Part shown: piece by piece, positions 7,156 through 25,765 of the stretch
Position numbering within the stretch: the first letter of the stretch is position 1
How the letters are laid out: each line of letters starts with the position of its first letter
NCBI GenBank assembly: GCA_046733615.1
Contig: JBKPPP010000004.1
Coordinates: 1 to 45,137, forward strand
Reading direction: 5' to 3'
DNA: 45,137 nt
From: Acidobacteriota bacterium
Lineage (GTDB): Bacteria > Acidobacteriota > Blastocatellia > Pyrinomonadales > Pyrinomonadaceae
The notes under the pieces: generated by a model
Databases searched by the model: none
Seen by the model: only the letters and a program-made list of their open reading frames with translations
Told to the model about the DNA's origin: nothing
Translations under genes and position numbers: made by a program

Positions 7156-9336
7156 ATGAAAACTCAGGGTAAGAAGTTGATGCAATCCGAAAGTCCGAAG
7201 CCCGCGCCGTTGAAGCCGAAACGTTTCTTTGCCTGGTCAGTGCTGAACCGCGATCTGTGCCAGTTGGAGTTCTTCAGGCGAGTGCTGGAAGAGGCGCTCG
7301 ACAAATCATCACCAGTGCTAGAGCGGCTGAAGTTCCTCTCCGTCTTCTCGTCGAACCTGGACGAATTTTTCATGGTCCGCGTCTCGGGTATCAAGGAGAT
7401 GCTGGACATCGAGGATCTCGGCCCGATGCCCGGCGAGCTGACGCCGGTCGAGCAGCTTGCGGTGATTCGCAATCGCGTGCTGACGCTCGTCGAGGAGCAC
7501 ACGCGCTGTCTGCGTGAAGAAGTGATTCCGGAGCTCGGTGCAAACGGCGTGGTCATCGCGCCGTATGCGTCACTCAAAAAAGACGAGCAGCGCGGCCTGA
7601 ATCAGTACTTCATGAAAAACATCTTTCGCGTGCTGACACCGCAGGCTGTCGATCCGGCGCGCCCGTTTCCTTACATCTCGAACCTGAGCTTGAACATCGG
7701 TCTCACGGTTGAAAGCAATCCGGAAGACACGCTTGCGGGTGCGCCACTCGGCAACGAGAAGCGCTTCGTGCGAATTAAAGTTCCGCCCGTAGTGCCGCGG
7801 CTGATTCCGGTGAGTAAGAGCCAGGTGAAGTTTGCACTCGTGGAGGAAGTGATCGAGGCAAACATTCACCGGCTGTTTCCCAGCATGCACTTGAGCAAGG
7901 GGCACCTGTTTCGCGTGACGCGCGATGCCGACGTCGAGATCCGCGACGACAAGGCGGCGGACCTGCTCGCCTTGATCAAGGAATCGTTGCGCGAGCGGCG
8001 GTTTGGTTTGCCGGTGCGCCTGGAAGTGTCGTCGTCGATGCCCGCGGAGATGGTCGACTACCTCACGACGTCGCTGCGCATCGACTCGAATGATGTTTAC
8101 GCGATTGACGGGTTGCTGGACGCGCCCGACTTGATGGAGCTCTACAGCCTCCCGCGGCCTGATCTAAGAGATAAGCCGCTGAAGGCGACGGTGCCGGCGG
8201 TGTTGCGCAACAAGGAGTCGTTCTTTGACGCGCTCAAGAAGCAGGACGTGCTGCTGCATCATCCGTACACGTCGTTCGGAACGATCATCGATTTCATACG
8301 CGCCTCGGCGCAGGATCCGCAGGTAGTGGCGATCAAGATGTGTCTCTACCGCACCGGACAAAACTCGCCGATTGCGCAGGCGCTGATCGAAGCGAGTGAG
8401 CGAGGCAAGCAGGTCACCGCGGTAGTCGAGATCAAAGCGCGCTTCGACGAGGAGAACAACATCGAATGGGCCAAGCGGCTTGCCGAATCGGGCGTGCACG
8501 TCGTGTACGGTCTGATAGATCTGAAAACCCACAGCAAGGTCGCGCTGGTTGTGCGGCGCGAGGACGACGGTCTTCAAACGTACACGCACATCGCGACCGG
8601 CAACTACAACCCGACAACCTCGCGGCTTTACACCGATCTCGGTTTGCTGACCGCCGACACGGTAATCGGCGACGACGCCACTGACCTGTTCAACTTTCTC
8701 ACCGGATTCTCGATGCAGAAGGAGTACACGCGGCTGATGGTGGCGCCGCTGAATCTGCGCAAGCGCATGATGGCGCTGATCAAACGCGAAACGGCGCATG
8801 CGGAAGCAGGACGGCCGGCGCGGATCGCCGCGAAAGTGAATCGCCTGACGGATCTGAACATCATTGAAGCGCTTTACGAAGCGTCGCAGGCGGGAGTGCA
8901 GATCGATCTGATCGTGCGTGGCGCGTGCATGATTCGTCCAGGCGAGCCGGGACTCTCGCCCACGATTCACGTCCGCAGCATCGTCGGACGTTTTCTCGAG
9001 CACAGTCGCATCTTCTTCTTCGCGAATGGAGGCGATGAAGAAGTCTACATCGGCTCGGCTGACTGGATGACGCGCAATCTGGATCGTCGGGTCGAAGTGG
9101 TGACGCAGGTGCTCGATACACACGCGAAGAAGTATTTGAAAGACACCGTGCTGGGCGCGTATCTGCGCGACAACGTGAAGGCGCGCGTGATGAACTCCGA
9201 CGGCAGCTACGAACGCCCGCCGATGTCACCGGGCGAAGAGCCGTTCAATAGCCAGTTGTTTTTCGAGGGTCCAAACAGCTCACCGGCAGTCGCGAGCGTT
9301 CACCCGTTGAAGAAGCCGTTGTGGACTAAGCAGTAG
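7156..9336 (+). CDS. ppk1: Polyphosphate kinase 1
   Basis: 726 aa. N-terminal PPK1 signature NRDLCQLEFFRRVLEEA...PVLERLKFLSVFSSNLDEFFMVRVSG and C-terminal PLD-like repeats (HSKVALVVRRE..., FLEHSRIFFF). The start may be a few codons downstream. Confidence 0.92.
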   Translation: MKTQGKKLMQSESPKPAPLKPKRFFAWSVLNRDLCQLEFFRRVLEEALDKSSPVLERLKFLSVFSSNLDEFFMVRVSGIKEMLDIEDLGPMPGELTPVEQLAVIRNRVLTLVEEHTRCLREEVIPELGANGVVIAPYASLKKDEQRGLNQYFMKNIFRVLTPQAVDPARPFPYISNLSLNIGLTVESNPEDTLAGAPLGNEKRFVRIKVPPVVPRLIPVSKSQVKFALVEEVIEANIHRLFPSMHLSKGHLFRVTRDADVEIRDDKAADLLALIKESLRERRFGLPVRLEVSSSMPAEMVDYLTTSLRIDSNDVYAIDGLLDAPDLMELYSLPRPDLRDKPLKATVPAVLRNKESFFDALKKQDVLLHHPYTSFGTIIDFIRASAQDPQVVAIKMCLYRTGQNSPIAQALIEASERGKQVTAVVEIKARFDEENNIEWAKRLAESGVHVVYGLIDLKTHSKVALVVRREDDGLQTYTHIATGNYNPTTSRLYTDLGLLTADTVIGDDATDLFNFLTGFSMQKEYTRLMVAPLNLRKRMMALIKRETAHAEAGRPARIAAKVNRLTDLNIIEALYEASQAGVQIDLIVRGACMIRPGEPGLSPTIHVRSIVGRFLEHSRIFFFANGGDEEVYIGSADWMTRNLDRRVEVVTQVLDTHAKKYLKDTVLGAYLRDNVKARVMNSDGSYERPPMSPGEEPFNSQLFFEGPNSSPAVASVHPLKKPLWTKQ

Positions 9337-9371: not shown

Positions 9372-10307
9372 ATGAACCGTTTGACTCTCGCGGTGTTGGC
9401 GATGTTTGTCGTCATCCTGCTGGGTAGCGGGCTGGTGGCTTACATGTTGCGCGATCAGGCGCCCGCAGGTGCGACACCGGCGAGCTCGCCGGGAAACACG
9501 AGCACAGCGCAAACAACACCAACCGAGAACCGAACGCCGGCGGAGAACCAACCGCAGCGCGAGACACTTCCGCAGGAAGTCCCGCTGCTCGGACAATTAT
9601 TCGGACCAGACGTCTCAGGCCTTTCGCCATCAACTCTGTCGAGTTGGGAATCACTCTCCGCGCGGATCGCCCTACGCTTCTCGCTCGCCGCGTTTCTCGC
9701 CGCCATTTTGGCATTCCGACCGCGGCGCGGTCTGTCACTAACGCGCCGCAATCCTTACGTCGCGCAGACGCAGATCCTGATGGCCGTCGTCGCGGGCGCG
9801 ATGATGATGGTGGTCGGCGACAGCGCGGCCCGCGCTTTCGGCATCTTCGCCGCCGCTTCACTCGTTCGCTTTCGCACCAACATTCGCGACCCGAAGGAGA
9901 TCACGGTCCTGCTGGTCTGTCTCGGCGTCGGTCTCGCCGCCGGCGTCGGCCGCTGGGACATGGCCATCATCCTGACGTTATTCGTACTCCTCTCACTGGC
10001 AATCCTCGAATACTTCGAACAGTTTCAAGTCTTCCGCTCGATGGAGCTCTGCGTCCAAACGCGCGACGTGGATCGCACCAACGACGTGCTGAGAGGTCTC
10101 TTCGTGCGTCACGATTTCGATTACGAGCTGCGCGAACTCAACCGGCAGGATGCGGAAGAACCGCTCGGCAAGATCGTTTACCTCGTAAACATCGATCCCG
10201 TGACCAGCACGAGTAAACTCAGTGACGAAATACTGTCGCGCGATGCCGACAACGTTGACAGTGTCGAGTGGGATCAGAAGGAAAGCAAGACGTATATTTA
10301 CAAGTAG
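9372..10307 (+). CDS. DUF4956-like multi-pass membrane protein
   Basis: N-terminal TM helix, a Pro/Thr/Ala-rich linker, then several TM helices with SLVRFRTNIRDPKEITVLLVCLGVGLAAGVG (DUF4956-like core), followed by a soluble tail. Lies immediately downstream of ppk1. Confidence 0.55.
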   Translation: MNRLTLAVLAMFVVILLGSGLVAYMLRDQAPAGATPASSPGNTSTAQTTPTENRTPAENQPQRETLPQEVPLLGQLFGPDVSGLSPSTLSSWESLSARIALRFSLAAFLAAILAFRPRRGLSLTRRNPYVAQTQILMAVVAGAMMMVVGDSAARAFGIFAAASLVRFRTNIRDPKEITVLLVCLGVGLAAGVGRWDMAIILTLFVLLSLAILEYFEQFQVFRSMELCVQTRDVDRTNDVLRGLFVRHDFDYELRELNRQDAEEPLGKIVYLVNIDPVTSTSKLSDEILSRDADNVDSVEWDQKESKTYIYK

Positions 10308-10331
10308 CACCGAACAAGCGGGAGGACTGGA

Positions 10332-10976
10332 TTGAGCCGAACGATAGTAGTGGGAGACATTCACGGTTGTTACGACGAGCTGACGGAGCTGCTCGCGAAG
10401 GTCGGCTTCACGGCGGACGATCGGGTCGTCGCCGTCGGTGATCTGATAACGAAAGGTCCGAAGAACCGCGAAGTGCTCGATCTGTTCATGACTGACGCGC
10501 GTTTCCGCACGGTAATCGGGAATCACGACCTTGCGATTCGTCGCAAGTGGAACGGCGAGAAGCTGAAGTTGCGCACGGCGCAAAAAGTGACTCACAAAGA
10601 GTTGAAAGCAGAAAAAGAGAAGTACCTGCCGTTTCTGAATCGCCTGCCGTTCACCATCGATCTCGGGACGCACCTCGTCGTGCACGCGGGCCTGCGGCCG
10701 GACATCGAGCTTTACTCACAGACGACCGAAGACATGACGCTCATGCGCACGCTCGGCAAGGACCGTGAAAAACATGACGGCACGCCGTGGTACGAGGTCT
10801 ACGACGGCGACAAGATCGTTTTGTTCGGACACTGGCCCTCGCCCGACCCACGCCGCGGGAAAAAGGCCCTGGGTCTCGACACCGGCTGCGTTTACGGTTA
10901 CAAATTAACTGCTTACATTATCGAGACGGACGAGTTAGTCACCGTCCCGGCAAAGCGTGGCTACGATGAATCGTGA
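10332..10976 (+). CDS. Calcineurin-like metallophosphoesterase (ApaH/PrpE-type Ser/Thr phosphatase or diadenosine tetraphosphatase)
   Basis: TTG start. Motifs [27 protein letters not shown] and VVHAG...GH match PPP-family metallophosphoesterases. Confidence 0.8.
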
Positions 10977-12454: not shown

Positions 12455-14386
12455 ATGACCACTGATCCGCAATCGCTCAATCCCCGGCTCAACACTGAAG
12501 CAGCGTTGCTGCGTTCGGAAAAAGAGCTGGCTGACATCAAGTTTGCGCTCGACGAGTCGGCCATCGTCGCGATTACCGATCAGCGCGGCATTATCAATTA
12601 CGCCAACGACAAGTTCTGCCAGATCTCGAAGTATTCCCGCGAGGAGCTGCTCGGTCAGGACCATCGCATCATCAATTCCGGTTACCATTCGAAAGAGTTC
12701 ATCAGAAATCTTTGGACGACGATAGCGAGCGGCCACGTTTGGCGCGGCGAGATCAAGAATCGCGCCAAGGACGGGAGTCACTACTGGGTCGACACGACCA
12801 TCGTTCCGTTTCTCAACGCGGAGGGAAAGCCTTACCAGTACGTCGCGATTCGCAGCGACATCACCGAGCGTAAACGCGCTGAAGAGCAGATTCGCGAACA
12901 GGCGGCACTGCTGGACCAGGCGCAGGATGCGATCCTGGTTCGCGACCTCGACCAGAACATTCTCTTCTGGAACAAGGGAGCCGAGCAGATGTATGGCTGG
13001 ACCGCCGAAGAGGTCATCGGCAAGAAGGTTCAGGATGTGCTCTTCAAAGAACGTTCGAGCCAGTTTGAAGCTGCTCGCAGCGCGATCGTCGAACAAGGAG
13101 AGTGGAAGGGTGAAATTCGCCAGACGCGTCGCGACGGCGCGCAGATCATTGTCGAGAGCCGTTGGACTCTCGTGCGCGACGAGCAGGGAAGTCCGAGATC
13201 GATTCTCGTTATCAACACCGACATCACCGAGAAGAAGCGGATGGAATCGCAGTTTCTGCGCGCGCAGAGAATGGAGTCCATCGGCACGCTTGCGGGCGGC
13301 ATCGCTCACGATCTCAATAACGTGCTTTCGCCGATCCTGATGGCCATCGACATGCTGCAACTGCGAACGACCGACGCGAGCAGCAAGAAATGGCTCGACG
13401 TGCTGCGCACGAACGCGGAGCGTGGCGGCAACATGGTGCGGCAAGTGCTTTCGTTTGCGCGCGGCGTCGAAGGCGAACGCGTTGCTTTGCAACCGAAGCA
13501 TTTGATTAAAGAGATCGTCAAGATCCTGCGCGAAACATTTCCGAAGTCCGTCGTGATCAGCTTTCACGTGCCTGACGACCTCTGGATCATCTCGGCGGAT
13601 GCGACGCAGATGCACCAGGTGCTGATGAATCTCTGCGTAAACGCGAGAGACGCGATGCCTGAAGGCGGCTCGATCTCGATCCGGGCGGAAAATATTTTTG
13701 TAGATGAAAACTACGCCCGCATGCACATCGAAGCGAAGGCCGGCCGCTTCGTTGTAATTCAGGTCTCGGACACGGGACCGGGAATGGCGCCCGAGATTCA
13801 AAGCCGCATCTTTGAACCGTTCTTCACCACGAAAGAGATGACGAAGGGAACCGGTCTCGGTCTCTCGACGGCGTTGACGATCGTCAAGAGTCACGGCGGA
13901 TTCATCAACGTCTATAGCGAGCTGCACAAAGGGAGTAGCTTCGCGCTCTATCTTCCGGCGCTCGACGCGCCGGGCGCTGCTGATGTCGCGGCATTGCAAA
14001 CGGATCTGCCGGTCGGCAACGGCGAGTTGATCCTAGTCGTCGACGACGAAGACTCGATTCGCGAAATCACTCGCAGCACGCTCGAGACGTTTGGCTATCG
14101 CGTGTTGACTGCCAGCGACGGCACGGAAGCATTGGCGGTGTATGCCGACAAGAAGAACGAGATCGCCGTTGTGTTGACGGACATGGTCATGCCGTTCATG
14201 GACGGTCCGGCCACGATTCGTGCGCTGCAAAGAATGAATCCCCGGGTGCGAATCATCGCGGCCAGCGGGTTGGGCACCGGACAGCATGCCGGCGAAGGCG
14301 CGTTGGAAGGCGTCGCCGTGTTTCTCACTAAACCCTACACCGCGGAGAAGTTGCTGAGAACCCTCGCGCAGGTTCTTCACGGCTGA
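12455..14386 (+). CDS. Hybrid sensor histidine kinase (PAS-PAS-HisKA-HATPase-REC)
   Basis: Two PAS/PAC units (...HRIINSGYH...YVAIRSDITERKRAEE; ...ILVINTDITEKKRME). H-box GGIAHDLNNVL, N/G boxes (NLCVNARDAM, DTGPGM, GTGLGL). C-terminal receiver LVVDDEDSI...VLTDMVMPFMDG. Confidence 0.9.
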   Translation: MTTDPQSLNPRLNTEAALLRSEKELADIKFALDESAIVAITDQRGIINYANDKFCQISKYSREELLGQDHRIINSGYHSKEFIRNLWTTIASGHVWRGEIKNRAKDGSHYWVDTTIVPFLNAEGKPYQYVAIRSDITERKRAEEQIREQAALLDQAQDAILVRDLDQNILFWNKGAEQMYGWTAEEVIGKKVQDVLFKERSSQFEAARSAIVEQGEWKGEIRQTRRDGAQIIVESRWTLVRDEQGSPRSILVINTDITEKKRMESQFLRAQRMESIGTLAGGIAHDLNNVLSPILMAIDMLQLRTTDASSKKWLDVLRTNAERGGNMVRQVLSFARGVEGERVALQPKHLIKEIVKILRETFPKSVVISFHVPDDLWIISADATQMHQVLMNLCVNARDAMPEGGSISIRAENIFVDENYARMHIEAKAGRFVVIQVSDTGPGMAPEIQSRIFEPFFTTKEMTKGTGLGLSTALTIVKSHGGFINVYSELHKGSSFALYLPALDAPGAADVAALQTDLPVGNGELILVVDDEDSIREITRSTLETFGYRVLTASDGTEALAVYADKKNEIAVVLTDMVMPFMDGPATIRALQRMNPRVRIIAASGLGTGQHAGEGALEGVAVFLTKPYTAEKLLRTLAQVLHG

Positions 14387-14391: not shown

Positions 14392-14429
14392 CTGCGGGAA
14401 ATTCCTACCAGGCTGCGAAATACCTCGCA
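14392..14429. promoter_or_regulatory. Candidate enhancer (UAS): CTGCGGGAAATTCC plus inverted repeat TGCGA-N6-TCGCA
   Basis: GGAA-A-TTCC palindrome at 14392-14405 and a perfect TGCGA/TCGCA inverted repeat at 14414-14429. Both lie about 55-90 bp upstream of the -24 element at 14481. A related arrangement occurs at 28437-28475. Confidence 0.35.
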
Positions 14430-14480
14430 ATCGCGGCGGTTCACCCCCGAAAAATTCCCGTAACCAGCAGATACAGAAGG

Positions 14481-14496
14481 TGGTACGGCTCGTGCA
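14481..14496 (+). promoter_or_regulatory. Candidate sigma54 (-24/-12) promoter
   Basis: TGGTACGGCTCGTGCA versus consensus TGGCACG-N4-TTGCW. The GG and GC dinucleotides have correct spacing. Lies 62 nt upstream of ATG 14558 and directly downstream of the EBP/kinase pair. Confidence 0.55.
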
Positions 14497-14557: not shown

Positions 14558-15709
14558 ATGGCGAAAGTCTTGATCCTGGGTGGTGGGTTTGCCGGCGTTG
14601 TTGTTGCGGAACGCCTCGCTGAGCAGTTGGGCGGCGAACACCAGATCACGCTCGTCTCGCGGAGCCGGCAGTTCATTTTTTATCCGGCGCTGGTGCGACT
14701 CGCGTTCGGCAAAAACCAGCCGGAAGATGTTTCGTTCGATCTCCGACACACGCTATTGAGCCGGCGCGTTAACTTCGTCGAAGCGGAAGTTGCCCATATC
14801 GATCACGTTGAAAGACGAGTGACGATCGCTTACGGCGAAGTCGAAGGAAAACTCTCGTACGACTATCTCGTGTTTGCACTCGGCCGCCGGCTCGCGACCG
14901 AGCACATTCTCGGATTCTACGAGCACGCGCATCATCTGCTGAACGTCGACAAAGCGATCAAATTTCACAGGGCCATGGGCGAGCTTCACAAAGGACGGGC
15001 TGTCTTTGGTCAATGCGAGGGCGCTCGCCTGCCGGTTCCCGTTTACGAAAGTGCTTTTGCGCTGGCGCGCCGTCTTGAAGACAGCGGCGAACGTGACAGC
15101 GTGAACATAACAGTCGTGAGCCCGAGCACGCTCGAGGCGGAGCTCGGAGACTCGCGCGCGGCCGGCGCGATCGAGAACGCGCTGACGACCCAGCAGATCG
15201 AGTTCGTGCCTGACTTCAATATCACTTCAGTGACGGAAAACTCGGCGTTGACGGACAGCGGAGAAGCGCTCGAGTTCAACCTCCTAATGCTCGTGCCGCC
15301 GTTTCGCGGGCCTTCAGCCGCTTCATTCATGGGAGCGACCAATGAGGAAGGTTACCTCAGTGTCGAACTGACGATGCGCGTGCTGGGTCTGGATCGAATC
15401 TACGCCGTCGGCGATTGCGTGAACTTCGAAGGCCCTAAGATGGGCCACATGGCCGTGCGCCAGGGCGAAGTCGCGGCGGCGAATCTCGCGTCGGAACTTG
15501 CCGGACACGAACCCGCAGTGCGCTACCAGCATGAGATGAGATTCGTGATCGACGCCGCCGGAGACGACGCCGTCTATCTACACAAAGACATGGATGCCGA
15601 TGAAGCGTCCACAGTCAGACAAGGCCGCTTTTGGAGTTGGGCCAAACGCGCCCAACAACAGTATTGGGAATTCGGAGCAAGGAGGGGCGCCTCGCCCAAA
15701 ACTTTATGA
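14558..15709 (+). CDS. FAD-dependent pyridine nucleotide-disulfide oxidoreductase (sulfide:quinone oxidoreductase / NDH-2-like)
   Basis: The internal ATG at 14558 gives MAKVLILGGGFAGVVVA (Rossmann GxGxxG) with GAAGGA upstream. AVGDC...GPKMGHMAVRQG is typical of the SQR/NDH-2 C-terminal FAD region. The upstream extension from 14480 is basic and non-protein-like. Confidence 0.7.
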   Translation: MAKVLILGGGFAGVVVAERLAEQLGGEHQITLVSRSRQFIFYPALVRLAFGKNQPEDVSFDLRHTLLSRRVNFVEAEVAHIDHVERRVTIAYGEVEGKLSYDYLVFALGRRLATEHILGFYEHAHHLLNVDKAIKFHRAMGELHKGRAVFGQCEGARLPVPVYESAFALARRLEDSGERDSVNITVVSPSTLEAELGDSRAAGAIENALTTQQIEFVPDFNITSVTENSALTDSGEALEFNLLMLVPPFRGPSAASFMGATNEEGYLSVELTMRVLGLDRIYAVGDCVNFEGPKMGHMAVRQGEVAAANLASELAGHEPAVRYQHEMRFVIDAAGDDAVYLHKDMDADEASTVRQGRFWSWAKRAQQQYWEFGARRGASPKTL

Positions 15710-16659
15710 TGACTATCAAACGCATTGTTTGTCCCACTGACTTGTCCGCATACTCAGTCGGCGCGGTGCGTTACGCGCTGGCGCTGTCGCGCGTCCACGA
15801 TGCCGAGTTGATCCTTTTGCACTGCGAACCGCCTTCGGATCGTCTCGACAACGACGAAGAGCTCGGCATTCTGGAGTCGTCGGCGTTGGCTGAGATCAAC
15901 CCGCAGGAGCTCGTTGGCGCGCGCTGGCGGGCGATTGTCGCGACCGCGGAGGACGTGGGCGAGGAGATCATGAACCAGGCACAGTCGCAACACGCCGACT
16001 TGATCGTGATGAGATCGCGACGCCGGCCGCATCGCGCGGCCCTGCTCGGCTCGACGGCCGAAGCGGTGTGTCGCCGCGCGCCGTGCCCGGTGCTGGTGAT
16101 GCACGGCGACGAGCGCGAGTGGGTTGACGACGAGCTCCGCATCGATCTGCGCCGCGTGCTGGTTGCTTACGACTTCTCTGATTACTCCGAGCTGGCGCTC
16201 AACTACGCACTGTCAGTCGCGCAGGAGCATCAGGCAGAGCTCCATCTGCTGCACGTGTTGCCGCCGCGTTCGATAAACGATCCGGAGATTGCGTGGTATC
16301 CGAGCAAAGGCGAGTCGGCTTATCACACGGCTGCGCGCCGTTTGCAGCGAGCCGTGCCGGCTGAGGTCCATCTCTGGTGCACCGTCAAAACGGCCGTCAG
16401 CGAAGGACATCCTTATCGCGAGATTCTCAACTACGCCGAGAAGAACGACATCGACTTGATCAGCGTTGGCGCGCACGGCGCGGGGTTCGGCATGCGGGCT
16501 TTGTTTGGCTCGAACGTCGATCGCGTGTTGCGGCAGTCGCCTTGTCCGGTGCTGGTGGCACGCCCGTTGAAACCGGGAGTGATGCGGGCCAGAGAGGAAG
16601 CAAGCGTTTCGCTCACTTACGAAGGCGAGGGCGAGCGTGAGTTCGAACTGAGCTACTAA
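15706..16659 (+). CDS. Tandem universal stress protein (two UspA domains)
   Basis: ATG 15706 overlaps the upstream stop (ATGA). Two repeats each have ...LLHC/LLHV... and GS(T/N)...V(C/L)R...CPVLV motifs (GSTAEAVCRRAPCPVLVM; GSNVDRVLRQSPCPVLVA). Confidence 0.85.
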   Translation: MMTIKRIVCPTDLSAYSVGAVRYALALSRVHDAELILLHCEPPSDRLDNDEELGILESSALAEINPQELVGARWRAIVATAEDVGEEIMNQAQSQHADLIVMRSRRRPHRAALLGSTAEAVCRRAPCPVLVMHGDEREWVDDELRIDLRRVLVAYDFSDYSELALNYALSVAQEHQAELHLLHVLPPRSINDPEIAWYPSKGESAYHTAARRLQRAVPAEVHLWCTVKTAVSEGHPYREILNYAEKNDIDLISVGAHGAGFGMRALFGSNVDRVLRQSPCPVLVARPLKPGVMRAREEASVSLTYEGEGEREFELSY

Positions 16660-16677
16660 TCTCGCCCGGGAGTCGAT

Positions 16678-18621
16678 ATGGGAGAGCACAACGTCGAACA
16701 AGACTTTCAAGAGACGGACGCGCGGATCTTTATGAAGGCGCTGCTGGAAGATCTGCGGGCGCTGTCGTTCATGCTCGAAAACGGACGCGTTGAGAGCGGC
16801 ATCCGGCGCATCGGAGCGGAGCAGGAGATGTTTCTGATCGACAGCTACCTGCGACCCGCTCCGGTGTCGTTGGAAGTGCTGAGCCAGATTGACGACCCGC
16901 GGCTCACGACTGAGATCGCGCGTTTCAATCTGGAAGCGAACCTCACGCCGCTGCGTTTGACCGGCGCCTGTTTCAGCGAGATGCAGCAGGAGCTCGAGAA
17001 ACTGATCGCGCTGGCGCGGCGCAGTGCGGTCAGCCAGGGCGCAGACATCCTCCTCTCAGGCATTCTGCCGACGCTGCAAAAGTCAGACTTGACGCTCGAT
17101 AACCTCACGCCGGTCGCACGCTATCACGAGTTGAATCGCGGTGTTATTCGTCTGCGCGGCGGCCCGCTTTCGATTCACATCAAAGGGCTCGACGAGCTGC
17201 AGGCCACCCACGACAACATCATGATGGAGTCGTGCAACACCAGCTTCCAGGTCCACTTTCAAAGCACTGCCGGCGAGTTTGTGAATCACTACAACGTGGC
17301 GCAGGCGATCACGGCGCCGGTGCTCGCAGTCGCGGTTAACTCGCCGTTGCTGTTCGGCCGGCGCTTGTGGCAGGAGACGCGCGTCGCGCTGTTCCAGCAT
17401 TCGACTGATGAGCGTTCGTCGTCACAGCTCGCGCGCAGCCAGCCGACACGCGTGAGTTTTGGCGACGAGTGGTTGCGCAACTCGATCGTGGAGCTTTACC
17501 ACGAGCAGATTCTGCGTTTTCGTCCGATCATGATCAGCCGGGCGGACGAGAATCCTTTTGCCGTGCTCGCCCGCGGCGAGACGCCTTCGCTCTCGGCGCT
17601 GCGAATGCACAACGGAACCGTTTGGCGCTGGAATCGCGCCTGCTACGGCGTGACTGACGGCGTGCCGCACCTGCGCATCGAGAACCGCGCGTTGCCGTCC
17701 GGCCCAACGATTACAGACGAGATAGCTAACGCAGCTTTCTTCAGCGGCCTGATGCTGGCGCTCCCTGAAGAGTACGGCGAGATCGCGACGCAGATGGAGT
17801 TTGAAGAGGCGAAGTTGAACTTCTTCCGCGCGGCGCGACACGGCCTCGACGCTCAGTTCCGCTGGATAGGTGGGCAGAGTCTCAGCGCGTCGAAGCTGAT
17901 TTTGAACCACCTCCTGCCGCTCGCGAAACAGGGATTGAGCAGTGCGGAAGTGGCGAGTGAAGACATCGATCGTTACCTCGGCATTATCGAGGAGCGCGCG
18001 CGTTGCGGGCAGACAGGCGCGCGCTGGATCACGAAGTCCTGGGCGGCGATGGGAAACTCGACGTCGAGAGAAACGCGCCGCATGGCACTGACGTCCGCGA
18101 TGTTGAGCAATCAGAAGCAGAATCAACCGGGACACTGTTGGCCCGTGGTTGAAGTCGCCGAGACTGAGCAATGGGAACAGCACTACCAGGTCGTCAGCCA
18201 GTTTATGTCGACCGACTTGTTTACGGTCCATCCGGGCGACTTGATCGATCTCGCGGCAAGCGCGATGAATTGGCGGCACATCCGGCATGTGCCGGTGGAG
18301 GATGAGGATGGACGGCTGGTAGGTTTAGTGACTCATCGCGGTCTGTTGCGAATGATGAGTGGTGGAAGGAGCGAAGCGCTCACCGTGCGGGAGATCATGA
18401 TCGAGAATCCGGTCACCGTTTCGCCGTCGACGACGTCGTTGGAGGCGATGGATCTCATGCGCGGCAATCGCATCGGCTGTTTGCCGGTGGTGGAAGACAA
18501 TCGCCTCGTCGGGATCGTCACGTCGTACGACTTTCTCGAAGCGACGGCAGCACTTTTCAGGCAGCATCTTTCAGCGAAGACGGAAGCGCCCAAGTTTCTG
18601 GCGCAGGCAAACAATGGGTGA
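16678..18621 (+). CDS. Glutamate-cysteine ligase family 2 (carboxylate-amine ligase)-like domain fused to a C-terminal CBS pair
   Basis: N-terminal [12 protein letters not shown] and later GCS2-like blocks. The last ~130 aa form two CBS motifs ([16 protein letters not shown]...[16 protein letters not shown]; [16 protein letters not shown]...[20 protein letters not shown]). Confidence 0.65.
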
Positions 18622-18809
18622 GCGGTACATGTGGAAAATATCCCAAGCAGCGCGGTTTTCTTTGCGACAATATCTCAGTAGTGGGTCATGGCATGAGTAA
18701 AACGCCAGCAAATTTACTAGTTGATTCCTTTGTGCTCTTTGGTACACTCATTGCCAATGACCCTCTGGAGGGCGAGCCAGGGCTCGGTACAGGCGCTCGC
18801 AGTAAGCAC

Positions 18810-19523
18810 ATGGTCGGCGCAAAGCGATGTGCAGTTACGGAGGAGCGGGATCCGCTTATCCCCGAAACGGTTTGTTGTAATTCGGCTTTAGGTGCGCTTC
18901 GCGGCCTGAACGCCGTCAAAACCAGCAGACACCATGCACGCGGTTCGGTGCTGTTTGTCGAAGGTCAAATGCCACGAGGAGTCTATATCCTGTGTGAAGG
19001 TCGTGCGAAAATCTCAATCGCGTCACCCGAAGGCAAGACACTCGTGCTTAGGATTGTTCAGCCTGGTGACGTTTTAGGATTGAATGCCGCACTCACCGGC
19101 TCAACACATACTGCGACGATGCAGGCGCTCGAGCCCTGCCGCGTCGACTTTATACCTCGGAAAGATCTGCTGCGGCTGCTCGATCGTGACAAGCGTGTCT
19201 ATGCCGATGTGGCGCAGGCGTTGAGCTACAAGCTCAATAGCGTGGTAGATCACACCCGGCTGCTGTTCCTGTCGCATTCAGTAACCGAAAGACTGGCGCG
19301 ACTGATGGTTCGGTGGTGTGATGAGGGTGGGAAACGAACCAGCCAGGGAATCAAGATCGTCACAGGTCTTACTCACGAAGAAATCGCCCAGATGATTTGC
19401 ACGTCGCGTGAGACCGTCACGCGACTACTAAGCAAGTTCAAGAAGCAGCATCTGGTCAGCCTTGTCGGCACGACGATTTTTATTCGCAATCGTAAAGCGC
19501 TCGAAGCTCTCGCGGGATTCTGA
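18810..19523 (+). CDS. Crp/Fnr-family transcriptional regulator
   Basis: cNMP-binding-like barrel (GSVLFVEGQMPRGVYILCEGRAKISIASPEGKTLVLRIVQPGDVLG) and C-terminal HTH (LTHEEIAQMICTSRETVTRLLSKFKK). The start was chosen at the internal ATG giving 237 aa; the ORF is open from 18618. Confidence 0.8.
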   Translation: MVGAKRCAVTEERDPLIPETVCCNSALGALRGLNAVKTSRHHARGSVLFVEGQMPRGVYILCEGRAKISIASPEGKTLVLRIVQPGDVLGLNAALTGSTHTATMQALEPCRVDFIPRKDLLRLLDRDKRVYADVAQALSYKLNSVVDHTRLLFLSHSVTERLARLMVRWCDEGGKRTSQGIKIVTGLTHEEIAQMICTSRETVTRLLSKFKKQHLVSLVGTTIFIRNRKALEALAGF

Positions 19524-19534: not shown

Positions 19535-19550
19535 TGTGATGAGCGTCACA
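19535..19550. promoter_or_regulatory. Perfect CRP-type palindrome TGTGA-N6-TCACA
   Basis: TGTGATGAGCGTCACA lies in the 91-nt gap between the Crp/Fnr gene and the decaheme gene. Its centre is about 72 nt upstream of ATG 19615. Confidence 0.55.
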
Positions 19551-19614
19551 GCCATCGGCACAAACTTATCATTAAAATTGGCGGCATTTTGAGGGCCTGA
19601 GGTGAAACACCACC

Positions 19615-20622
19615 ATGATTAAGTTTCTTATTATTCTCGCTCTGCTTGTAGCGGTGATGTGGCTCGCCACGGGAACCTATTCACAGTCTGCCCCGACAGG
19701 CCAGTCTCAAGCTAAGACTCAAACGCAATCACCCCACGCCAACAGCGGCGACTACGTGGGCAGCGAAGCGTGCAAGGATTGTCACGAGGATCAATTCAAA
19801 AACTTCTCTCATACGACGCACGCGCGTCTGACCATGCTCGCCAGTTGGAAAGATCGCGTGACAGGCTGTGAATCATGTCACGGACCCGGCAAGGCCCACA
19901 TCGAAGAAGGCGATCCCAAAAAGATCATGTCCTTCAAGAACAAGCCGCCCAAGGAGATCTCCGAGACCTGTTTGACTTGTCACTCCGGCAGGGAAGAGCA
20001 CAACAACTTCCGCCGCGGCGAGCACTGGCGTAATGATATCGGGTGCATCGATTGCCATGCGCCCCATTCACCGGCCACTGGCCGGCAACTTGCCGCTTCC
20101 AACGTCTTCGTTTCACCCGCAAACGCACAGAAGCCCGGTTTCTCCACGATTAAGCTGCTCAGAAATAGCGAGCCGCAATTGTGCCTGGGCTGTCATGGCG
20201 AAATGAAGCACCAGTTTAATTTGCCCTTCCATCACAAGGTGCTGGAAGGAGCAATGAAGTGCAGCGATTGCCACAATCCGCACGGCGGTTTCGAACTTAA
20301 ACAAACGCGATTGGCGACAGGCGCGGATGCGGCCTGTATCAAGTGTCACGCTGACAAACAAGGCCCATTCGTATACGAGCACGCGCCGGTCAAGACCGAA
20401 GGTTGCATCGCGTGTCATACACCTCACGGGTCGTCCAACCCACGGCTGTTGATTACGAGCAGGGTCGGACAGCTCTGTCTGACGTGTCACAGCTCGGCCC
20501 ACGGGGTTGGCGCCGACGAACCGGCAGGTCCGCAGCATAACCAAAATGCGCAATACGCTAATTGCACAAACTGTCACGTCAAGATTCACGGTTCACGTAC
20601 GAGTCCAGTCTTTTTCAGGTAA
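19615..20622 (+). CDS. Periplasmic decaheme c-type cytochrome, MtrA/DmsE/PioA/MtoA-like
   Basis: 335 aa with a signal peptide. Exactly ten CXXCH motifs (CKDCH, CESCH, CLTCH, CIDCH, CLGCH, CSDCH, CIKCH, CIACH, CLTCH, CTNCH). C-terminal CTNCHVKIHGS resembles the MtrA-family ending. GAGGTG RBS. Confidence 0.85.
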   Translation: MIKFLIILALLVAVMWLATGTYSQSAPTGQSQAKTQTQSPHANSGDYVGSEACKDCHEDQFKNFSHTTHARLTMLASWKDRVTGCESCHGPGKAHIEEGDPKKIMSFKNKPPKEISETCLTCHSGREEHNNFRRGEHWRNDIGCIDCHAPHSPATGRQLAASNVFVSPANAQKPGFSTIKLLRNSEPQLCLGCHGEMKHQFNLPFHHKVLEGAMKCSDCHNPHGGFELKQTRLATGADAACIKCHADKQGPFVYEHAPVKTEGCIACHTPHGSSNPRLLITSRVGQLCLTCHSSAHGVGADEPAGPQHNQNAQYANCTNCHVKIHGSRTSPVFFR

Positions 20623-20667
20623 CCGTATTGTGAATCGTGGCGGCGGGCTAAGTCGGGAGGATGTCCC

Positions 20668-22860
20668 ATGACAAGGAAACCAGAGCGAGCGTACTTGATA
20701 CTTTCGGGAATAGTATTGTTGCTGATGATAGTGTCGGCGCAAGCTCAGCAACCGTCGCCCACGCCAAAAACCGATAACAATCAACCTGGTGCGCCCGTCG
20801 AAGCAGGCGAGGACGCAGGTGACTACACGGTCATCTCGAGTTTGGAGTTCGGTTATCGGGGAATAAGACTCGACGGCGACGAGAACAAGTACAAGAGCGA
20901 TCTCAATTACAAGGCTGGCCCACGCCTGTTCGACAGTAGTTTCCTAATGAGATCGCAGGACGGCAAATCGAATTTTTTCAATACCCTGCTCGTGACTTCG
21001 ACTGGTTGGGGAGCTGACCCGCAGGGCAATTTCAGAATAAGCGTCGAGAATCCAAAGTGGTATCGCTTTGACGGCACTTACCGCCGTTTCAAATACTTTC
21101 GTTTTCTGAATACCTTTGCCAATCCAAACTGGGTATTTAGTCCGCCGCAGTTTAGTGTGCCGCCGAAGCCCGGGACCGGTGAGCACGGCTTCAACACGAA
21201 AACCACGATGGGAGATTTTGATCTCACCATCCTGCCGAAGAACGAACGAATCAGATTCAACGTCGGATACTCGCCGGAACGTTACAATGGCCCTGCGTTC
21301 ACGAACTACCACTCCGGCGGAAACGAATTCAATCTCCTGTCGAATCTCAGATCCCGAGCGAACGACTTCCGCGTGGGAGCGGACGGGCGGATTGGCGGGG
21401 TCAATTTCTCGTTCCTCCAGGGTTTTCGCCGTTTTCGTGACGACAGCTCTATCGATTCCGGCGTGAATCCGGGCATCAACGTGAACCCGACCGCCGCGAA
21501 TCTCACCACTTTCCACCGCAACGAGCCCGCGCGCGGCAGCGTTAATTACACGCGCTTCAGCTTGCAGACGCTGATTGCCGGAAAACTCGATATCACAGGC
21601 CGCATCATCTACAGCAAGGCGAAGCAGACCTACGATTTTGCTGAGAACTTCACCGGCCGCAACTGGAACCCGCGAATCACGGGATTCCCGCCCAGCCCGC
21701 CGGCCGCAACGCCGAATATTCTCAACCTGGGCCAGTACGTTCTGAATGGTGAATCCGAACGGCCCAATACGCTCGGAGACATCGGATTGACGTACCGCTT
21801 CAACGAGCATTTCCGGCTTTCAAACACGTTTCGCGTAGAAGATTTCAAGATCGACGGCTTCGCCCTGTTCAGTGATTTCTTCTCGCTCACGCGCGGAACG
21901 AGGACCGATACGATCGGATTCAGTAACAACAACGTAAACACGTTGACCAAGTACCGGAAATACCAGAACCTGGTCGAAGGCGACTACCAGTTCAATAATC
22001 GCTACTCGGTCCACCTTGGATATCGTTACGCGAGGCGCCGGATCGAGGAAGAGCTGAGCGGTTTTAACCTCGGCTCGAATTCGCCCACGCCGCTAACTCC
22101 GGAGAGTTTTGAGGAACACAACAACACCAACGTAGTGATTGGCGGTTTCAAAGCGCGGCCGCTCACTGACTGGACGATCTACTTCGACGCCGAACACGGC
22201 ACGGCCGACAACGTCTTCACTCGAATCGGAAACTACAACTTCACCAATGTTCGAGCTAAGAGCCGGTACAAACCGAGTCGAAATGTGGCGTTCAATGTGT
22301 CGTACATTACGAAAAACAATTCCAACCCTTCGGAGATCGCCGGTGTTTCGCTCGAAGACTTTGGCGTAAGCGTGAAATCGCGTCTCTTCTCCACGACTCT
22401 TGATTGGACTCCTGATTCAAGAGCGTCGTTCAGCACCGGATACAACTACCACTGGATCACCAGCAATTCCGCTATTGAATACTTCTTCAATAGTGTACAG
22501 CACCCGTTTGGTCACAGTGTCTATTACAGCCGGAACAACTTCTTCTTTATCGATGCGGTGCTCCAGCCGGCTCGCCGCGTGACACTATTCACGTCGTACC
22601 GGATCAATAAAGATAACGGTCAGGGCAATCGAGTTGCCGACCCGACCGGTAATCCCGGATTGCTGATCGCTTCTTATCCGATGAGTTTCCAGTCACCCGA
22701 AGCGCGGCTGGCGATCAAGTTACATCATCGACTTGATTGGAACATTGGCTACCAGTATTACAACTACGACGAAAGCGCGATTGTCGGTCCAAGACCGCAG
22801 AACTATCACGTACACCTCCCATACACGTCGTTGCGAATTTACATCGGTCGAAGAGAATAG
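20668..22860 (+). CDS. Large outer-membrane beta-barrel protein, MtrB/PioB-like porin partner of the decaheme
   Basis: 730 aa, signal peptide ...LLLMIVSAQAQQ, no Cys. Alternating aromatic/polar beta-strand pattern throughout (many Y/F/W-x-G/N/D turns). GGGAGG RBS. Position immediately 3' of an MtrA-like gene and a size like MtrB (about 700 aa). Family assignment is inferred, not searched. Confidence 0.6.
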   Translation: MTRKPERAYLILSGIVLLLMIVSAQAQQPSPTPKTDNNQPGAPVEAGEDAGDYTVISSLEFGYRGIRLDGDENKYKSDLNYKAGPRLFDSSFLMRSQDGKSNFFNTLLVTSTGWGADPQGNFRISVENPKWYRFDGTYRRFKYFRFLNTFANPNWVFSPPQFSVPPKPGTGEHGFNTKTTMGDFDLTILPKNERIRFNVGYSPERYNGPAFTNYHSGGNEFNLLSNLRSRANDFRVGADGRIGGVNFSFLQGFRRFRDDSSIDSGVNPGINVNPTAANLTTFHRNEPARGSVNYTRFSLQTLIAGKLDITGRIIYSKAKQTYDFAENFTGRNWNPRITGFPPSPPAATPNILNLGQYVLNGESERPNTLGDIGLTYRFNEHFRLSNTFRVEDFKIDGFALFSDFFSLTRGTRTDTIGFSNNNVNTLTKYRKYQNLVEGDYQFNNRYSVHLGYRYARRRIEEELSGFNLGSNSPTPLTPESFEEHNNTNVVIGGFKARPLTDWTIYFDAEHGTADNVFTRIGNYNFTNVRAKSRYKPSRNVAFNVSYITKNNSNPSEIAGVSLEDFGVSVKSRLFSTTLDWTPDSRASFSTGYNYHWITSNSAIEYFFNSVQHPFGHSVYYSRNNFFFIDAVLQPARRVTLFTSYRINKDNGQGNRVADPTGNPGLLIASYPMSFQSPEARLAIKLHHRLDWNIGYQYYNYDESAIVGPRPQNYHVHLPYTSLRIYIGRRE

Positions 22861-22920
22861 AGTTAGAAACGAAGGCCACGGTAAGTTGCAGTTTCAGTTC
22901 TGATAACTCCGGAGGACTGA

Positions 22921-23403
22921 GTGGGCGACATTATTGCCGATAAGACAACTGGCCCAGGCCGCGATCCTGCATTACAAACAACGTCCCGTCGCAAGTTCCT
23001 CGATTACTTGCTCGGAACCAGTGCAGTCGCGACCCTGGGTGCGATCTTGTATCCGATCATCCGGTTCATGGTGCCGCCGCACATCGTGGAGGCACTGCAA
23101 AACTCCGTGGTGGCCGCCAAGGTGACTGAGCTCCCGCCAAACTCGGCGAAGATCTTCAAATTCGGCAGCAAACCCGGGATTGTTATCCGCACGGCGTCCG
23201 GAGAATTGAAGGCCTTCTCAGCCGTGTGCACCCACCTCGACTGCATCGTGCAGTATCGTCAGGATACGAAACAGATCTGGTGCGCCTGCCATAACGGTCA
23301 ATACAACCTCAACGGAGAAAACATCGGCGGTCCCCCGCCGCGGCCCCTGGAAGAATATGTAGTGAACAAACGAGGCGACGACATTGTAGTAAACAGATCC
23401 TGA
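22921..23403 (+). CDS. Rieske [2Fe-2S] subunit of a cytochrome bc/b6f-type complex, Tat-exported
   Basis: GTG start after GGAGGA. Twin-arginine motif [11 protein letters not shown] plus TM helix. Rieske boxes CTHLDC and CACHNG. Confidence 0.88.
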
Positions 23404-23408
23404 AGCCG

Positions 23409-24473
23409 ATGAAAGTCGACACAGTGAAAAGCTGGCTTGATGAGCGTCTCTACATAAGCGCGCTCACCCAGGCGGCGCAGAAGAAAGAAGTTCCGCTTCA
23501 CCGTCAGTCAATCTGGTACTACTTCGGTGGTATGACGCTGTTTCTTTTCGTGGTCCAGGTGGTCACGGGAATCCTGTTATTGCTCTACTACCGGCCGAGC
23601 GCTGAAAACGCGTTTGAGAGCGTTCAGTTCATCATGACTGAGGTGAAGTTTGGCTGGCTGATCCGTTCAATTCATAGTTGGTCGGCGAACCTGATGATTC
23701 TGACGCTGTTCATCCACCTGTTCAGCGTCTATTTCATGCGCGCTTACAACCGGCCTCGCGAGATCACGTGGGTCAGCGGCGTGGTGCTGCTGTTCATTTC
23801 CATCTGTTTTGGGTTCAGCGGGTATTTACTGCCGTGGAACGAGGTCTCGTTCTTTGCTACGAAGGTGGGCACTGAGATTGCCGGCGTCATTCCAGTCGTC
23901 GGCAAGACAATGTTGCGCTTCCTGCGCGGCGGTGACGAAGTGACCGGCGCCACGTTGACGCGCTTTTTCGGATTTCACGTCGCAGTGCTACCGGCAATGG
24001 CGACGGTATTTGTATTTGTGCACGTCCTGCTGGTCCAGGTGCACGGCATGCATGTTCCGGCTCGTTATGAACAGAATAGCCGGCGCATAAAATTCTTTCC
24101 AAACTTCATAATGCGCGACGCGATCGGGTGGTTATTCGCAATTGGCGCGTTGGCTGCACTCGCCGCCATTTTCCCTTGGGAGCTCGGCGTCAAAGCGGAT
24201 CCGTTTGCGCCGGCCCCGGCCGGAATAAAACCGGAATGGTATTTCCTGTTCATGTTTCAAACACTGAAATACATTCCAGCGAAGATTCTCAGTATTGATG
24301 GCGAAGTTCTCGGCATTCTTTTTTTCATGTTGGCAGGCGGCGCCCTGTTTCTGGTGCCGTTCATTAATCGCTCTGCGGAGCAGCATCCGCGCCGCAGGCT
24401 GGTGTTCAATCTACTCGGAATTATCGCGATCTTGTTCATGGCAGTTATGACGGTGATCGGGTATTTAGCGTGA
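23409..24473 (+). CDS. Cytochrome b (fused b6 + subunit IV type)
   Basis: [30 protein letters not shown]. Helix B has H-x13-H ([15 protein letters not shown]) and helix D has H-x14-H ([16 protein letters not shown]), which is b6-like spacing. Qo-site PEWY motif ([15 protein letters not shown]). Confidence 0.9.
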
Positions 24474-25756
24474 TAACGAGAATCCGATTACTTTTGCTGT
24501 TTGCGGCCGGCGTGTTGTTGATTACTGCCTGCCCGGCCGCTGCTCAGCAGAAAAACTCGTGTCTCGAGTGTCACAGCAAACTGGAAGGAGAATTCGGCGC
24601 GCCCGCGCGTTCGATTAAAGACGACATTCATCTTTCCAGAGGTCTCTCCTGCAACGATTGCCACGGCGGCGATCCGACCAAGGACGACAAGGACGCCGCG
24701 AAAGACAGATCGAAAGGTTATTTGGGGCGGCCTCGAACGGTAGATATTCCCGCCTTCTGCGGCAAGTGTCACAACGATGCGAGCTTTATGAAGAAGTTTA
24801 ATCCGGCTTTGCGAGTGGACCAGGAGAAGGAGTACTCGACCAGCGTTCACGGACAACTGCTAAAAAAGGGAAACGAGAAGGTCGCCACCTGTATCAGTTG
24901 TCATGGCGTGCACGGAATTCGCGCCGTGAGCGACGCTCTTTCTTCAGTGTACCCGTCGAACGTTGCGGAGACCTGTTCCAAGTGCCACAGCGAAGCGGGC
25001 CGGATGGCCGAATTCAAAATTCCGACAGATCAATACTCGAGGTACAAGAAGAGTGTTCATGCGAAGGCGTTGTATGAGAAGCAGGATCTCAGTGCTCCGA
25101 CATGCAACGACTGTCATGGTAATCATGGCGCGGCTCCTCCGGGCATCGCGTCGGTGGCAAATGTTTGCGGGCAGTGTCACGCACGGCAGGCGGAGCTGTT
25201 TCAAGCCAGCCCACACAAAGTCGCGTTCGATAACGCGGGATTTGGCGAGTGCATCAAGTGTCATAACAACCACGACATCTACCCGCCCACCGATGCTCTG
25301 ATAGGCACAGGCGAAAACTCTATTTGTATATCGTGTCATAAACCGGGCGACAAAGGATTCATCGCTGCCGGCCAAATGCGCGGCGCGATCGACGACCTGT
25401 TGGCTCGTATCAAGCGCTCGGAGGAGATACTGGGTCGGGCGGAACGCGCAGGCATGGAAGTAAGTAAGCCCAAGTTTGATTTGCGTGAGGCAATTGACGG
25501 CGTTACTCATGCACGCGTGCTGATCCACACCTCATCTCCCGCGGAAGTCGACAAGCTGGTTGTGCCGGCGGTCGGGGTTGCGACAAAGGCGTACGAGTCT
25601 GGACAGGGCGCGCTTGCGGAGTTGAATGTTAGACGCAAAGGTCTGGTGGTCTCACTATTTTTTATCCTGTTCCTGGCGTTTCTGGTGTATTTAAAGCTGA
25701 GAGAAATTGAGAGACGGCGGCCAGCCGAGGGATTTTCAAAGAGTGGCGGCACCTAA
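24470..25756 (+). CDS. Membrane-anchored nonaheme c-type cytochrome (occupies the cytochrome c1/f position of the Rieske/cyt b operon)
   Basis: GTG start overlaps the cyt b stop (GTGA). Nine CXXCH motifs. N-terminal signal with possible lipobox LITAC. Helical region and C-terminal TM helix [18 protein letters not shown]. Three motifs are of the CxxCHxxHxI type. Confidence 0.8.
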
Positions 25757-25765
25757 AAAGGACAA

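Follow-up and report, generated by a model that had tools for sequence, protein, structure and literature searches.

A probable multi-promoter sigma-54 regulon with phased enhancer dyads ahead of stress and respiratory cytochrome genes in a Pyrinomonadaceae locus

Can one regulator pair switch on stress genes and respiratory cytochromes that lie in different operons of the same locus? The question is raised by a stretch of DNA from an Acidobacteriota bacterium of the family Pyrinomonadaceae, class Blastocatellia (assembly GCA_046733615.1, contig JBKPPP010000004.1, positions 1 to 45,137), the whole of which, 45,137 nucleotides in length, is called the window here. An earlier note on this DNA had marked two sigma-54 promoters, one ahead of a stress and redox operon and the other ahead of a cytochrome sub-operon, had pointed to an upstream motif common to both, and had suggested that the NtrC-type regulator and the hybrid kinase encoded beside the first promoter control the two of them. 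Direct reading of the sequence found all the strings quoted in that note at their positions, and the genes called around them fit the account given there. Our analysis makes it likely that the window holds a sigma-54 regulon of several promoters, P1, P2 and P3, which stand under the adjacent activator-kinase pair. A single neighbouring pair of redox-sensing regulators would then probably switch on stress genes and respiratory cytochromes together.

Sigma-54 elements were scored on both strands of the 45-kb window with an approximate weight matrix of our own construction. An element was assigned to this class when GG and GC stood 10 nt apart within a match to TGGCACG-N4-TTGCW, which has 12 specified positions. 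The three elements that concern us are these:

14481-14496, plus strand: P1 -24/-12 element TGGTACGGCTCGTGCA, second-best sigma-54 match in the window (12.9 bits)
28514-28529, plus strand: P2 -24/-12 element CGGCACGCTCATTGCT, best sigma-54 match in the window (14.8 bits)
18740-18755, plus strand: P3 -24/-12 element TGGTACACTCATTGCC, fourth-best sigma-54 match in the window (12.0 bits)

Mismatches to the 12 consensus positions number two in P1, one in P2 and three in P3. The GG/GC spacing is canonical (10 bases apart) in P1 and P2, and both of these elements are intergenic and oriented with the downstream gene. They are the two promoters named in the earlier note; besides being the top two matrix matches in the window, they are kept at orthologous positions in relatives. 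P3, which that note did not contain, is a third predicted promoter of the same class. The end of the element is separated from the ATG by 62 nt at P1 (ATG 14558), by 63 nt at P2 (ATG 28592) and by 54 nt at P3 (ATG 18810). Transcription is predicted to start at about 14507 for P1 and at about 28540 for P2, leaving 5′ untranslated regions of about 51 and 52 nt, and at about 18766 for P3, 44 nt ahead of the likely ATG of a Crp-family gene. The distances of 62-63 nt had been noticed before and were measured correctly, but no meaning can be attached to their equality: it is a coincidence, because the same distance varies from 24 to 89 nt among orthologues.

What do the promoters share besides the -24/-12 element? 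The conserved unit upstream of them, TGCG-N8-CGCA, is a dyad of 16 bp whose centre is rich in A and T (symmetrised consensus TGCGRAAWWTTYCGCA), and it is usually present in two tandem copies 20-21 bp apart. The N8 is constant inside the dyad, whereas the gap between neighbouring dyads is variable (4-6 nt). Sites were ranked with a symmetrised matrix trained on 120 non-redundant sites from relatives only, the window being excluded. The sites of the window, with their centres counted from the predicted transcription start, are as follows:

14393-14408: P1 distal site A, TGCGGGAAATTCCTAC, centre about -106.5; conserved block in 22 orthologous spacers, matrix rank 47
14414-14429: P1 proximal site B, TGCGAAATACCTCGCA, centre about -85.5; perfect TGCG-N8-CGCA, matrix rank 1 (22.5 bits)
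28438-28453: P2 distal site A, TGCGGAAAGTTTCCCA, centre about -94.5; matrix rank 2 (16.9 bits), orthologous sites exist
28458-28473: P2 proximal site B, TGCGCCAACAACCGCA, centre about -74.5; perfect core, matrix rank 21
18630-18645: P3 distal enhancer-like dyad, TGTGGAAAATATCCCA, centre about -128.5; matrix rank 9, aligns with TGGGGAATCTCCCGCA of the orthologues
18663-18677: P3 proximal half-dyad, TGCGACAATATCTCA, centre about -95.5; aligns with the conserved CTGCGnAATATTCC block of the orthologues

The centres thus extend from about 75 to about 130 bp upstream of the predicted starts, and the two P3 sites are 33 bp apart. The first rank of P1 site B is favoured, because the training set of the matrix includes P1 orthologues. 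An alignment of the two window spacers with MAFFT was uninformative, and anchoring on the -24 element was required. As to the common motif of the earlier note, it is indeed conserved at both promoters, but its form, given there as CTGCGG-GAAA-N-TTCC, has to be replaced by the tandem 16-bp dyad. The strings CTGCGGGAAATTCC (14392-14405) and CTGCGGAAAGTTTCC (28437-28451) are the left two-thirds of the distal dyads, and the inverted repeats GCTGCGA-aatacc-TCGCA (14412-14429) and TCTGCG-N8-CGCAGA (28456-28475) are the proximal dyads. A further strong dyad-like sequence, CGCGAAATCACTCGCA at 14060-14075, is the fourth in the window with 14.8 bits; it falls within the 3′ portion of the kinase gene, at a distance of 421 nt ahead of P1.

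If these modules have a function, then we can ask: How far have they been kept along the phylogenetic lineages of the family? The comparative set consists of about 130 related loci from Pyrinomonadaceae and other Blastocatellia, picked for their closeness to the activator or its cytochrome cluster. Of these, 52, from metagenome-assembled genomes, came from a genome scan with the outer-membrane barrel protein of the window as query, and 80, with activators 81-89% identical, from a metagenome scan with the activator as query. Two units of gene order are conserved. The first runs from activator and kinase, through an insert of 0-3 kb, to flavoprotein, universal stress protein (Usp), GCS2/CBS protein, Crp, cytochrome and barrel; the second is small cytochrome c-(CbcL)-ImcH. 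For orthologous promoters the sigma-54 cut-off was at least 9 bits for P2 and at least 11 bits for P1 and P3.

The P1 element, as TGGTACG-N4-GTGCA, lies upstream of the flavoprotein gene in 21 of the 31 loci that hold this gene. When 22 P1 spacers were aligned, only three blocks proved conserved, namely TGCGGGAAATTTC, CTGCGAAATACCYCGCAA and the -24/-12 element, the rest having diverged; site B is near-invariant in 21 of the 22. Of 31 genome loci, 23 have a P2-type element ahead of the small cytochrome c gene. The element persists even where the cytochrome c itself is only 41-72% identical, with the near-consensus TGGCACGCACGTTGCA in distant relatives, and is absent where the cytochrome c gene abuts the preceding gene, and also in L042. 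The position orthologous to P2 site B, at -55 to -58, is filled in L001, L002, L004, L014, L016, L017 and L039. P3-type elements precede the Crp orthologue in 20 loci besides the window, and eight aligned P3 spacers (window included) have two dyad blocks and the -24/-12 block in common. The P1 and P2 modules are evidently phylogenetic footprints of the elements flagged in the earlier note.

The position of the dyads relative to the promoters provides additional evidence. With one mismatch at most, the dyad core occurs at a rate of 0.93 per kb over 1.48 Mb of the loci, while in the interval from -135 to -30 it accompanies 21 of 22 P1-type and 20 of 24 P2-type promoters, and 152 of 329 sigma-54-like elements overall. 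Around 313 non-redundant elements, the stretch from -110 to -51 relative to the -24 element contains 161 dyads, compared with about 3 in each 10-bp bin outside it. Their positions peak at -57, -67, -78, -88, -98 and -108, with a periodicity of 10.5 bp. Such a spacing, one helical turn between peaks, is characteristic of an activator that has to face the polymerase. Frequent occurrence of the motif at random places had been named in the earlier note as a refutation; in the loci of relatives the degenerate core occurs at the rate just given, but is enriched about tenfold between -110 and -51. In many loci two divergent sigma-54 elements surround one dyad region, each arm at a phased distance. 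Examples are L056 (9312 on the minus strand, 9445 on the plus strand), L117 (5002 minus, 5154 plus) and L048 (1981 minus, 2123 plus).

Which protein would bind the dyads? The candidates lie directly upstream of P1:

11006-12436, plus strand: NtrC-family response-regulator enhancer-binding protein (EBP), the activator; Pfam Sigma54_activat (6.8e-68), Response_reg, AAA_lid_14 and HTH_8
12455-14386, plus strand: soluble hybrid kinase PAS-PAS-HisKA-HATPase-REC (Pfam)

The activator is intact, with a REC domain that retains the acceptor Asp, an AAA+ domain with Walker motifs and a C-terminal HTH of Fis type. Its open reading frame (ORF) is listed from GTG 10973 onwards; ATG 11006 is its likely start, and orthologues align from residues 7-17. 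The loop that contacts sigma-54 reads GAFTDA and not GAFTGA; in Desulfovibrio activators this variant counts as functional (PMC4641369). The closest solved relatives are 4l4u and 1ny5, annotated as 'Transcriptional regulator (NtrC family)', and the protein reaches no NCBIfam equivalog cut-off, its scores with the NtrC and AtoC models being below the curated cut-offs. No rpoN was present among the genes of the 45-kb window, and the intact sigma-54 interaction domain of the activator is our sole ground for supposing that the genome has this gene.

In the kinase no obvious membrane segment was detected. Its first PAS domain (residues 32-158; window 12455-12930) has its best match in PDB 3ewk (8.8e-56), followed by the aerotaxis receptor Aer (8dik) and NifL (2gj3), which are redox-sensing PAS domains of the FAD-binding type. 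PDB 3ewk is presumably the sensor domain of Methylococcus MmoS. The first PAS domain points to flavin-based redox sensing and makes the kinase a candidate redox sensor.

Of the 80 metagenome loci, 27 show the order activator-kinase-P1, and many of the remainder end before the gene. In two distant relatives, L045 and L052, an activator orthologue, 62-63% identical, lies divergent to the cytochrome operon. The spacers of these two loci (L045 17620-17690, L052 8870-8950) contain, besides a CRP box, a single strong dyad, TGTGAAGTTTTCCGCA or TGCGAAAATTTTCGCA (17.9 and 23.7 bits), just upstream of the activator gene, and are without a sigma-54 element. A dyad set ahead of the activator's own gene in such a spacer suggests autoregulation, which is possible in these two loci. 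Of 70 loci, 22 have a dyad of at least 12 bits in the 300 nt ahead of the activator gene, compared with 5.5% of background windows. The suggestion of control by the adjacent activator and kinase has therefore gained support from synteny, from L045 and L052 and from the intact domains. We regard this pair as the likely regulators of the dyad-bearing promoters, with the identity of the binding protein inferred.

Two observations on the surroundings of the activator gene may be added. Upstream of it in the window (7156-9336 and 9372-10976) lie genes for polyphosphate kinase 1, a DUF4956/MgtC-like protein and a metallophosphoesterase; the last of these overlaps the listed start of the activator, which therefore may be co-transcribed with the upstream genes. 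In relatives, a small Cys-rich protein of 120-148 aa without a Pfam family stands behind a sigma-54 element and dyad in 17 loci (for example L059, about 9500-9880, minus strand). Many of its genes are located just upstream of the activator gene and divergent from it; the window has none.

Several points weigh against the proposed regulon. The assignment of the dyads to this activator rests on adjacency, and relatives may encode paralogous activators of similar specificity. No dyad stands upstream of the activator gene in the window. Not all sites of the window are good ones: P1 site A is degenerate, with one T fewer than the orthologue consensus TGCGGGAAATTTC; P2 site B has an atypical, GC-rich spacer and ranks only 21; and the proximal P3 site is a half-site only, which scores poorly with the 16-bp matrix. 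The sigma-54 matrix and the dyad pattern are both of our own making, the latter drawn partly from the data under test. Sigma-54-like elements taken by themselves are at chance level in the window, two being observed against a mean of 2.0 in 1000 simulated first-order Markov sequences (cut-off 12.5 bits), and consensus matches number 63 against 80 expected from shuffles. No RpoN box was found in the fetched loci of relatives, a result which is uninformative. Finally, a search for RNA runs covering the locus found none, the only runs that contain it being soil metagenome DNA.

Some of these points are shared by the serious rival explanation, according to which the promoters and dyads are real and are served by an unlinked EBP or by paralogues of overlapping specificity, while the adjacent pair controls P1 only or something else. 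The absence of a dyad ahead of the activator gene in the window agrees with it, as does the P1 site B spacer, AAATACCY, which is almost invariant, unlike the spacers of P2 and P3; nevertheless, a single symmetric matrix picks up sites at all three promoters. Nearly half of the sigma-54-like elements in the loci carry this class of dyad, ahead of many unrelated gene families, and this may reflect a global regulator or a common specificity. However, a high share is to be expected when loci have been selected by their proximity to the activator or the cytochrome cluster. Moreover, linkage of the activator to P1 recurs in dozens of loci, and in L045 and L052 the activator gene, with a strong dyad directly upstream of it, is linked to the cytochrome operon. 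We consider control by another EBP unlikely, though deserving of attention, and prefer control by the adjacent pair.

Far less probable is a second explanation, in which the -24/-12 matches are due to chance, the palindromes are RNA hairpins or terminators, and downstream transcription is read-through or driven by sigma-70. It can draw on the chance frequency of sigma-54 matches in the window and on that of the bare dyads, which are not over-represented there (4 perfect dyads against 2.6, and 52 against 47 with one mismatch), and both palindromes directly follow stop codons. The conjunction of the two elements is another matter. A promoter with a perfect TGCG-N8-CGCA dyad, sought from -135 to -30 and present 56-67 nt upstream, was observed twice against a mean of 0.013 in the simulations described above, none of the 1000 runs reaching two; on its own this test is post hoc, because the dyad pattern was partly derived from the tested sites. 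The modules are preserved as sequence and not as compensatory pairs, at orthologous positions in otherwise divergent spacers, and the dyads keep a 10.5-bp phase with respect to the -24 element. The hairpin and terminator reading was rejected: the RNA folds no better than shuffles (z = -1.4 and -1.5), neither the P1 nor the P2 spacer has a terminator-like or sigma-70-like site, and an Rfam search of the window gave no match.

The regulon under the adjacent pair being preferred, what would it switch on? The genes downstream of the three promoters are arranged as follows:

14558-18621, plus strand: P1 operon (Pfam, NCBIfam; gene order kept in relatives)
14558-15709, plus strand: SQR/NDH-2-like flavoprotein, Pyr_redox_2 (Pfam/NCBIfam)
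About 15706-16659, plus strand: tandem Usp (Pfam/NCBIfam; start inferred from a tblastn alignment)
16678-18621, plus strand: GCS2 ligase fused to a CBS pair (Pfam/NCBIfam)
18810-19523, plus strand: Crp/Fnr-family regulator gene (Pfam cNMP_binding and HTH_Crp_2; NCBIfam CRP/Fnr/FixK-like, below curated cut-offs)
19535-19550, no strand assigned: CRP-type box TGTGATGAGCGTCACA, a perfect TGTGA-N6-TCACA in sequence, 80 nt ahead of the start codon (ATG) of the first multihaem cytochrome gene
19615-28421, plus strand: porin-cytochrome and Rieske/cytochrome b cluster (Pfam; synteny)
28592-32501, plus strand: P2 sub-operon (Pfam/NCBIfam; cytc-(CbcL)-ImcH unit kept in relatives)
28592-28921, plus strand: small mono-haem cytochrome c (Pfam/NCBIfam)
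29002-30930, plus strand: CbcL-like multihaem-cytochrome b fusion (Pfam/NCBIfam)
30927-32501, plus strand: ImcH/NapC-NirT-like cytochrome (Pfam/NCBIfam)

The cluster at 19615-28421 encodes multihaem cytochromes, an outer-membrane barrel of 730 aa (barrel-like sequence with a signal peptide), a Rieske protein, a cytochrome b and four more multihaem cytochromes. The listed ORF of the Crp-family protein has 301 aa from GTG 18618, and P3 falls inside it; this start is too early, because the cNMP domain begins only at residue 104, and ATG 18810 gives a protein of 237 aa. A -10-like hexamer, TAAAAT, is located at 19573-19578, 23 nt downstream of the CRP box, which places the centre of the box near -42, in class-II geometry. 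In 24 of 51 other loci a box of the TGTGA-N6-TCACA type (one half-site mismatch allowed) is found upstream of the orthologous cytochrome gene.

Seven loci gave no Crp orthologue (L003, L012, L016, L039, L048, L061 and L088); in them the first multihaem cytochrome gene has a sigma-54 element of its own, and in five of the seven this element is paired with a dyad. The locus thus looks like a cascade of two tiers in some lineages, while in others control would be direct. The difference looks like regulatory rewiring. A last explanation, which we find hardly credible, would make the dyads operators, bound by a repressor or by the cluster's Crp/Fnr-family protein: the cluster does include a Crp-family gene, and proteins of this family typically bind dyad-symmetric sites, but a separate canonical TGTGA-N6-TCACA box is conserved whose half-site and spacing are unlike TGCG-N8-CGCA, the dyads stand in tandem and in phase 75-130 bp upstream, which is enhancer and not operator geometry, and they still accompany sigma-54 elements in loci without a Crp gene.

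The genes that stand behind this promoter class in relatives include Usp, CBS-pair, qNOR, P-type ATPase, ResB and VIT1, and further Zn-dependent alcohol dehydrogenase, PEP synthase, ABC ATPase and the small Cys-rich protein. The set looks like a hypoxia or redox theme, and the regulon evidently extends beyond the two operons named earlier. Low oxygen or a reducing state would be the most economical signal, because the kinase has an Aer/NifL-like PAS domain and redox and stress gene families stand behind the promoter class.

Taken together, the proposed course of events is the following. On a signal which is likely to be low oxygen or a reduced cellular redox state, the hybrid kinase would phosphorylate the NtrC-family regulator. 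The phosphorylated regulator would bind the dyads as dimers, one or two helically phased copies of which precede each promoter, and would assemble into an AAA+ ring that spends ATP to open the sigma-54 closed complexes. P1 would drive the SQR/NDH-2-like flavoprotein, the tandem Usp and the GCS2-CBS protein, and P2 would serve as an internal promoter for the quinol-cytochrome module of cytochrome c, CbcL-like and ImcH-like proteins. P3 would drive the Crp-family regulator as the second tier of a cascade, and this regulator probably activates the porin-cytochrome operon through its class-II TGTGA-N6-TCACA box.

Elsewhere in the window, an ORF of 132 aa (38747-39145, minus strand) covers no more of a protein kinase domain than its N-terminal lobe. 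The immediate upstream neighbour of this ORF is a full-length Ser/Thr kinase-PD40 gene (39142-41823, minus strand), and the ORF may be a truncated duplicate or a frameshifted gene.

How does this arrangement compare with systems already described? In the classical NtrC and DctD enhancers (glnAp2, dctA) two tandem dyads are located about 70-140 bp upstream of GG-N10-GC on one face of the helix, and the activator, with REC, AAA+ and Fis-HTH domains, is phosphorylated by its cognate kinase. The layout of tandem dyads and the activator domains are the same here. The recognition sequence is different, however, the sites lie closer (centres from -75), and the targets are redox and stress genes and not those of nitrogen or dicarboxylate metabolism. 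The P2 sub-operon shares its architectures, a multihaem-cytochrome b fusion and a NapC/NirT-type cytochrome, with Geobacter CbcL and ImcH, a likeness by domain architecture only. A genomic survey of ImcH/CbcL-type quinol oxidases (PMC6295460) is said to mention Acidobacteria. In Desulfovibrio vulgaris the regulons of EBPs were reconstructed from co-localised activators, upstream dyads and -24/-12 elements (PMC4641369). The logic of that reconstruction and the presence of GAFTDA activators are common to both cases, while phylum and motifs differ. Our literature searches turned up no description of a sigma-54 regulon of this type in Acidobacteriota.

The closest described system is NmpRSTU of Myxococcus xanthus, also a soil bacterium. 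Its NtrC-like regulator NmpR acts in the hypoxia response at sigma-54 promoters with tandem dyads of GCGCA-like half-sites, and the regulon comprises CBS-domain proteins, universal stress proteins, a P-type ATPase and respiratory cytochromes; the pathway includes a hybrid kinase, the sensor being the haem protoglobin kinase NmpU that feeds the REC-HisKA hybrid NmpS (PMC11841059). The NtrC-like regulator and the tandem dyads have their counterparts here, the regulators being compared by their type. CBS, Usp, P-type ATPase and respiratory families likewise stand behind the promoter class in the window and in relatives, a comparison at the level of gene families. In contrast to this general similarity, the NmpR site is GCGCA-N5-TGCGC, 15 bp with 10 bp from centre to centre, whereas the dyad of the window is TGCG-N8-CGCA, 16 bp with 12 bp and half-sites in the opposite sense. 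The sensory parts differ as well: instead of the NmpU/NmpS pair, the sole kinase adjacent to the activator is soluble with a PAS domain of FAD type (Aer/NifL-like). Among the targets, a cbb3 oxidase in the Nmp system is opposed to porin-cytochrome and CbcL/ImcH-like modules here. On account of the dyad geometry and the type of sensor, membership in NmpRSTU was rejected.

What does the finding mean for these bacteria? The predicted gene switch is well supported and is of an ordinary bacterial kind; our understanding of sigma-54 systems is not changed by it, because the mechanism is that of a standard sigma-54 and enhancer system. Its interest lies mainly in the physiology of soil Acidobacteriota. 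These are among the most abundant soil bacteria, and we know of almost nothing that has been established on the control of their respiration; Pyrinomonadaceae and other Blastocatellia are usually regarded as aerobic heterotrophs. If the prediction holds, the motif TGCGRAAWWTTYCGCA, the three promoters and a candidate sensor-regulator pair become testable, and a redox signal would be tied to Geobacter-like genes of electron export and to stress proteins. Respiration with extracellular acceptors, or survival of anoxia, in supposedly aerobic soil bacteria would then be testable together with its signal, and the motif permits scans for the regulon across the many uncultured genomes of the family. 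We offer it as a tentative idea only that soil Blastocatellia, on loss of oxygen, may switch on porin-cytochrome/CbcL/ImcH extracellular electron transfer along with Usp, CBS and qNOR genes in a dormancy-like set, through a conserved sigma-54 regulon with a FAD-PAS kinase that acts directly in some lineages and via Crp in others. If this is true, the direct and the Crp-interposed wiring would present a natural case of regulatory rewiring within one family.

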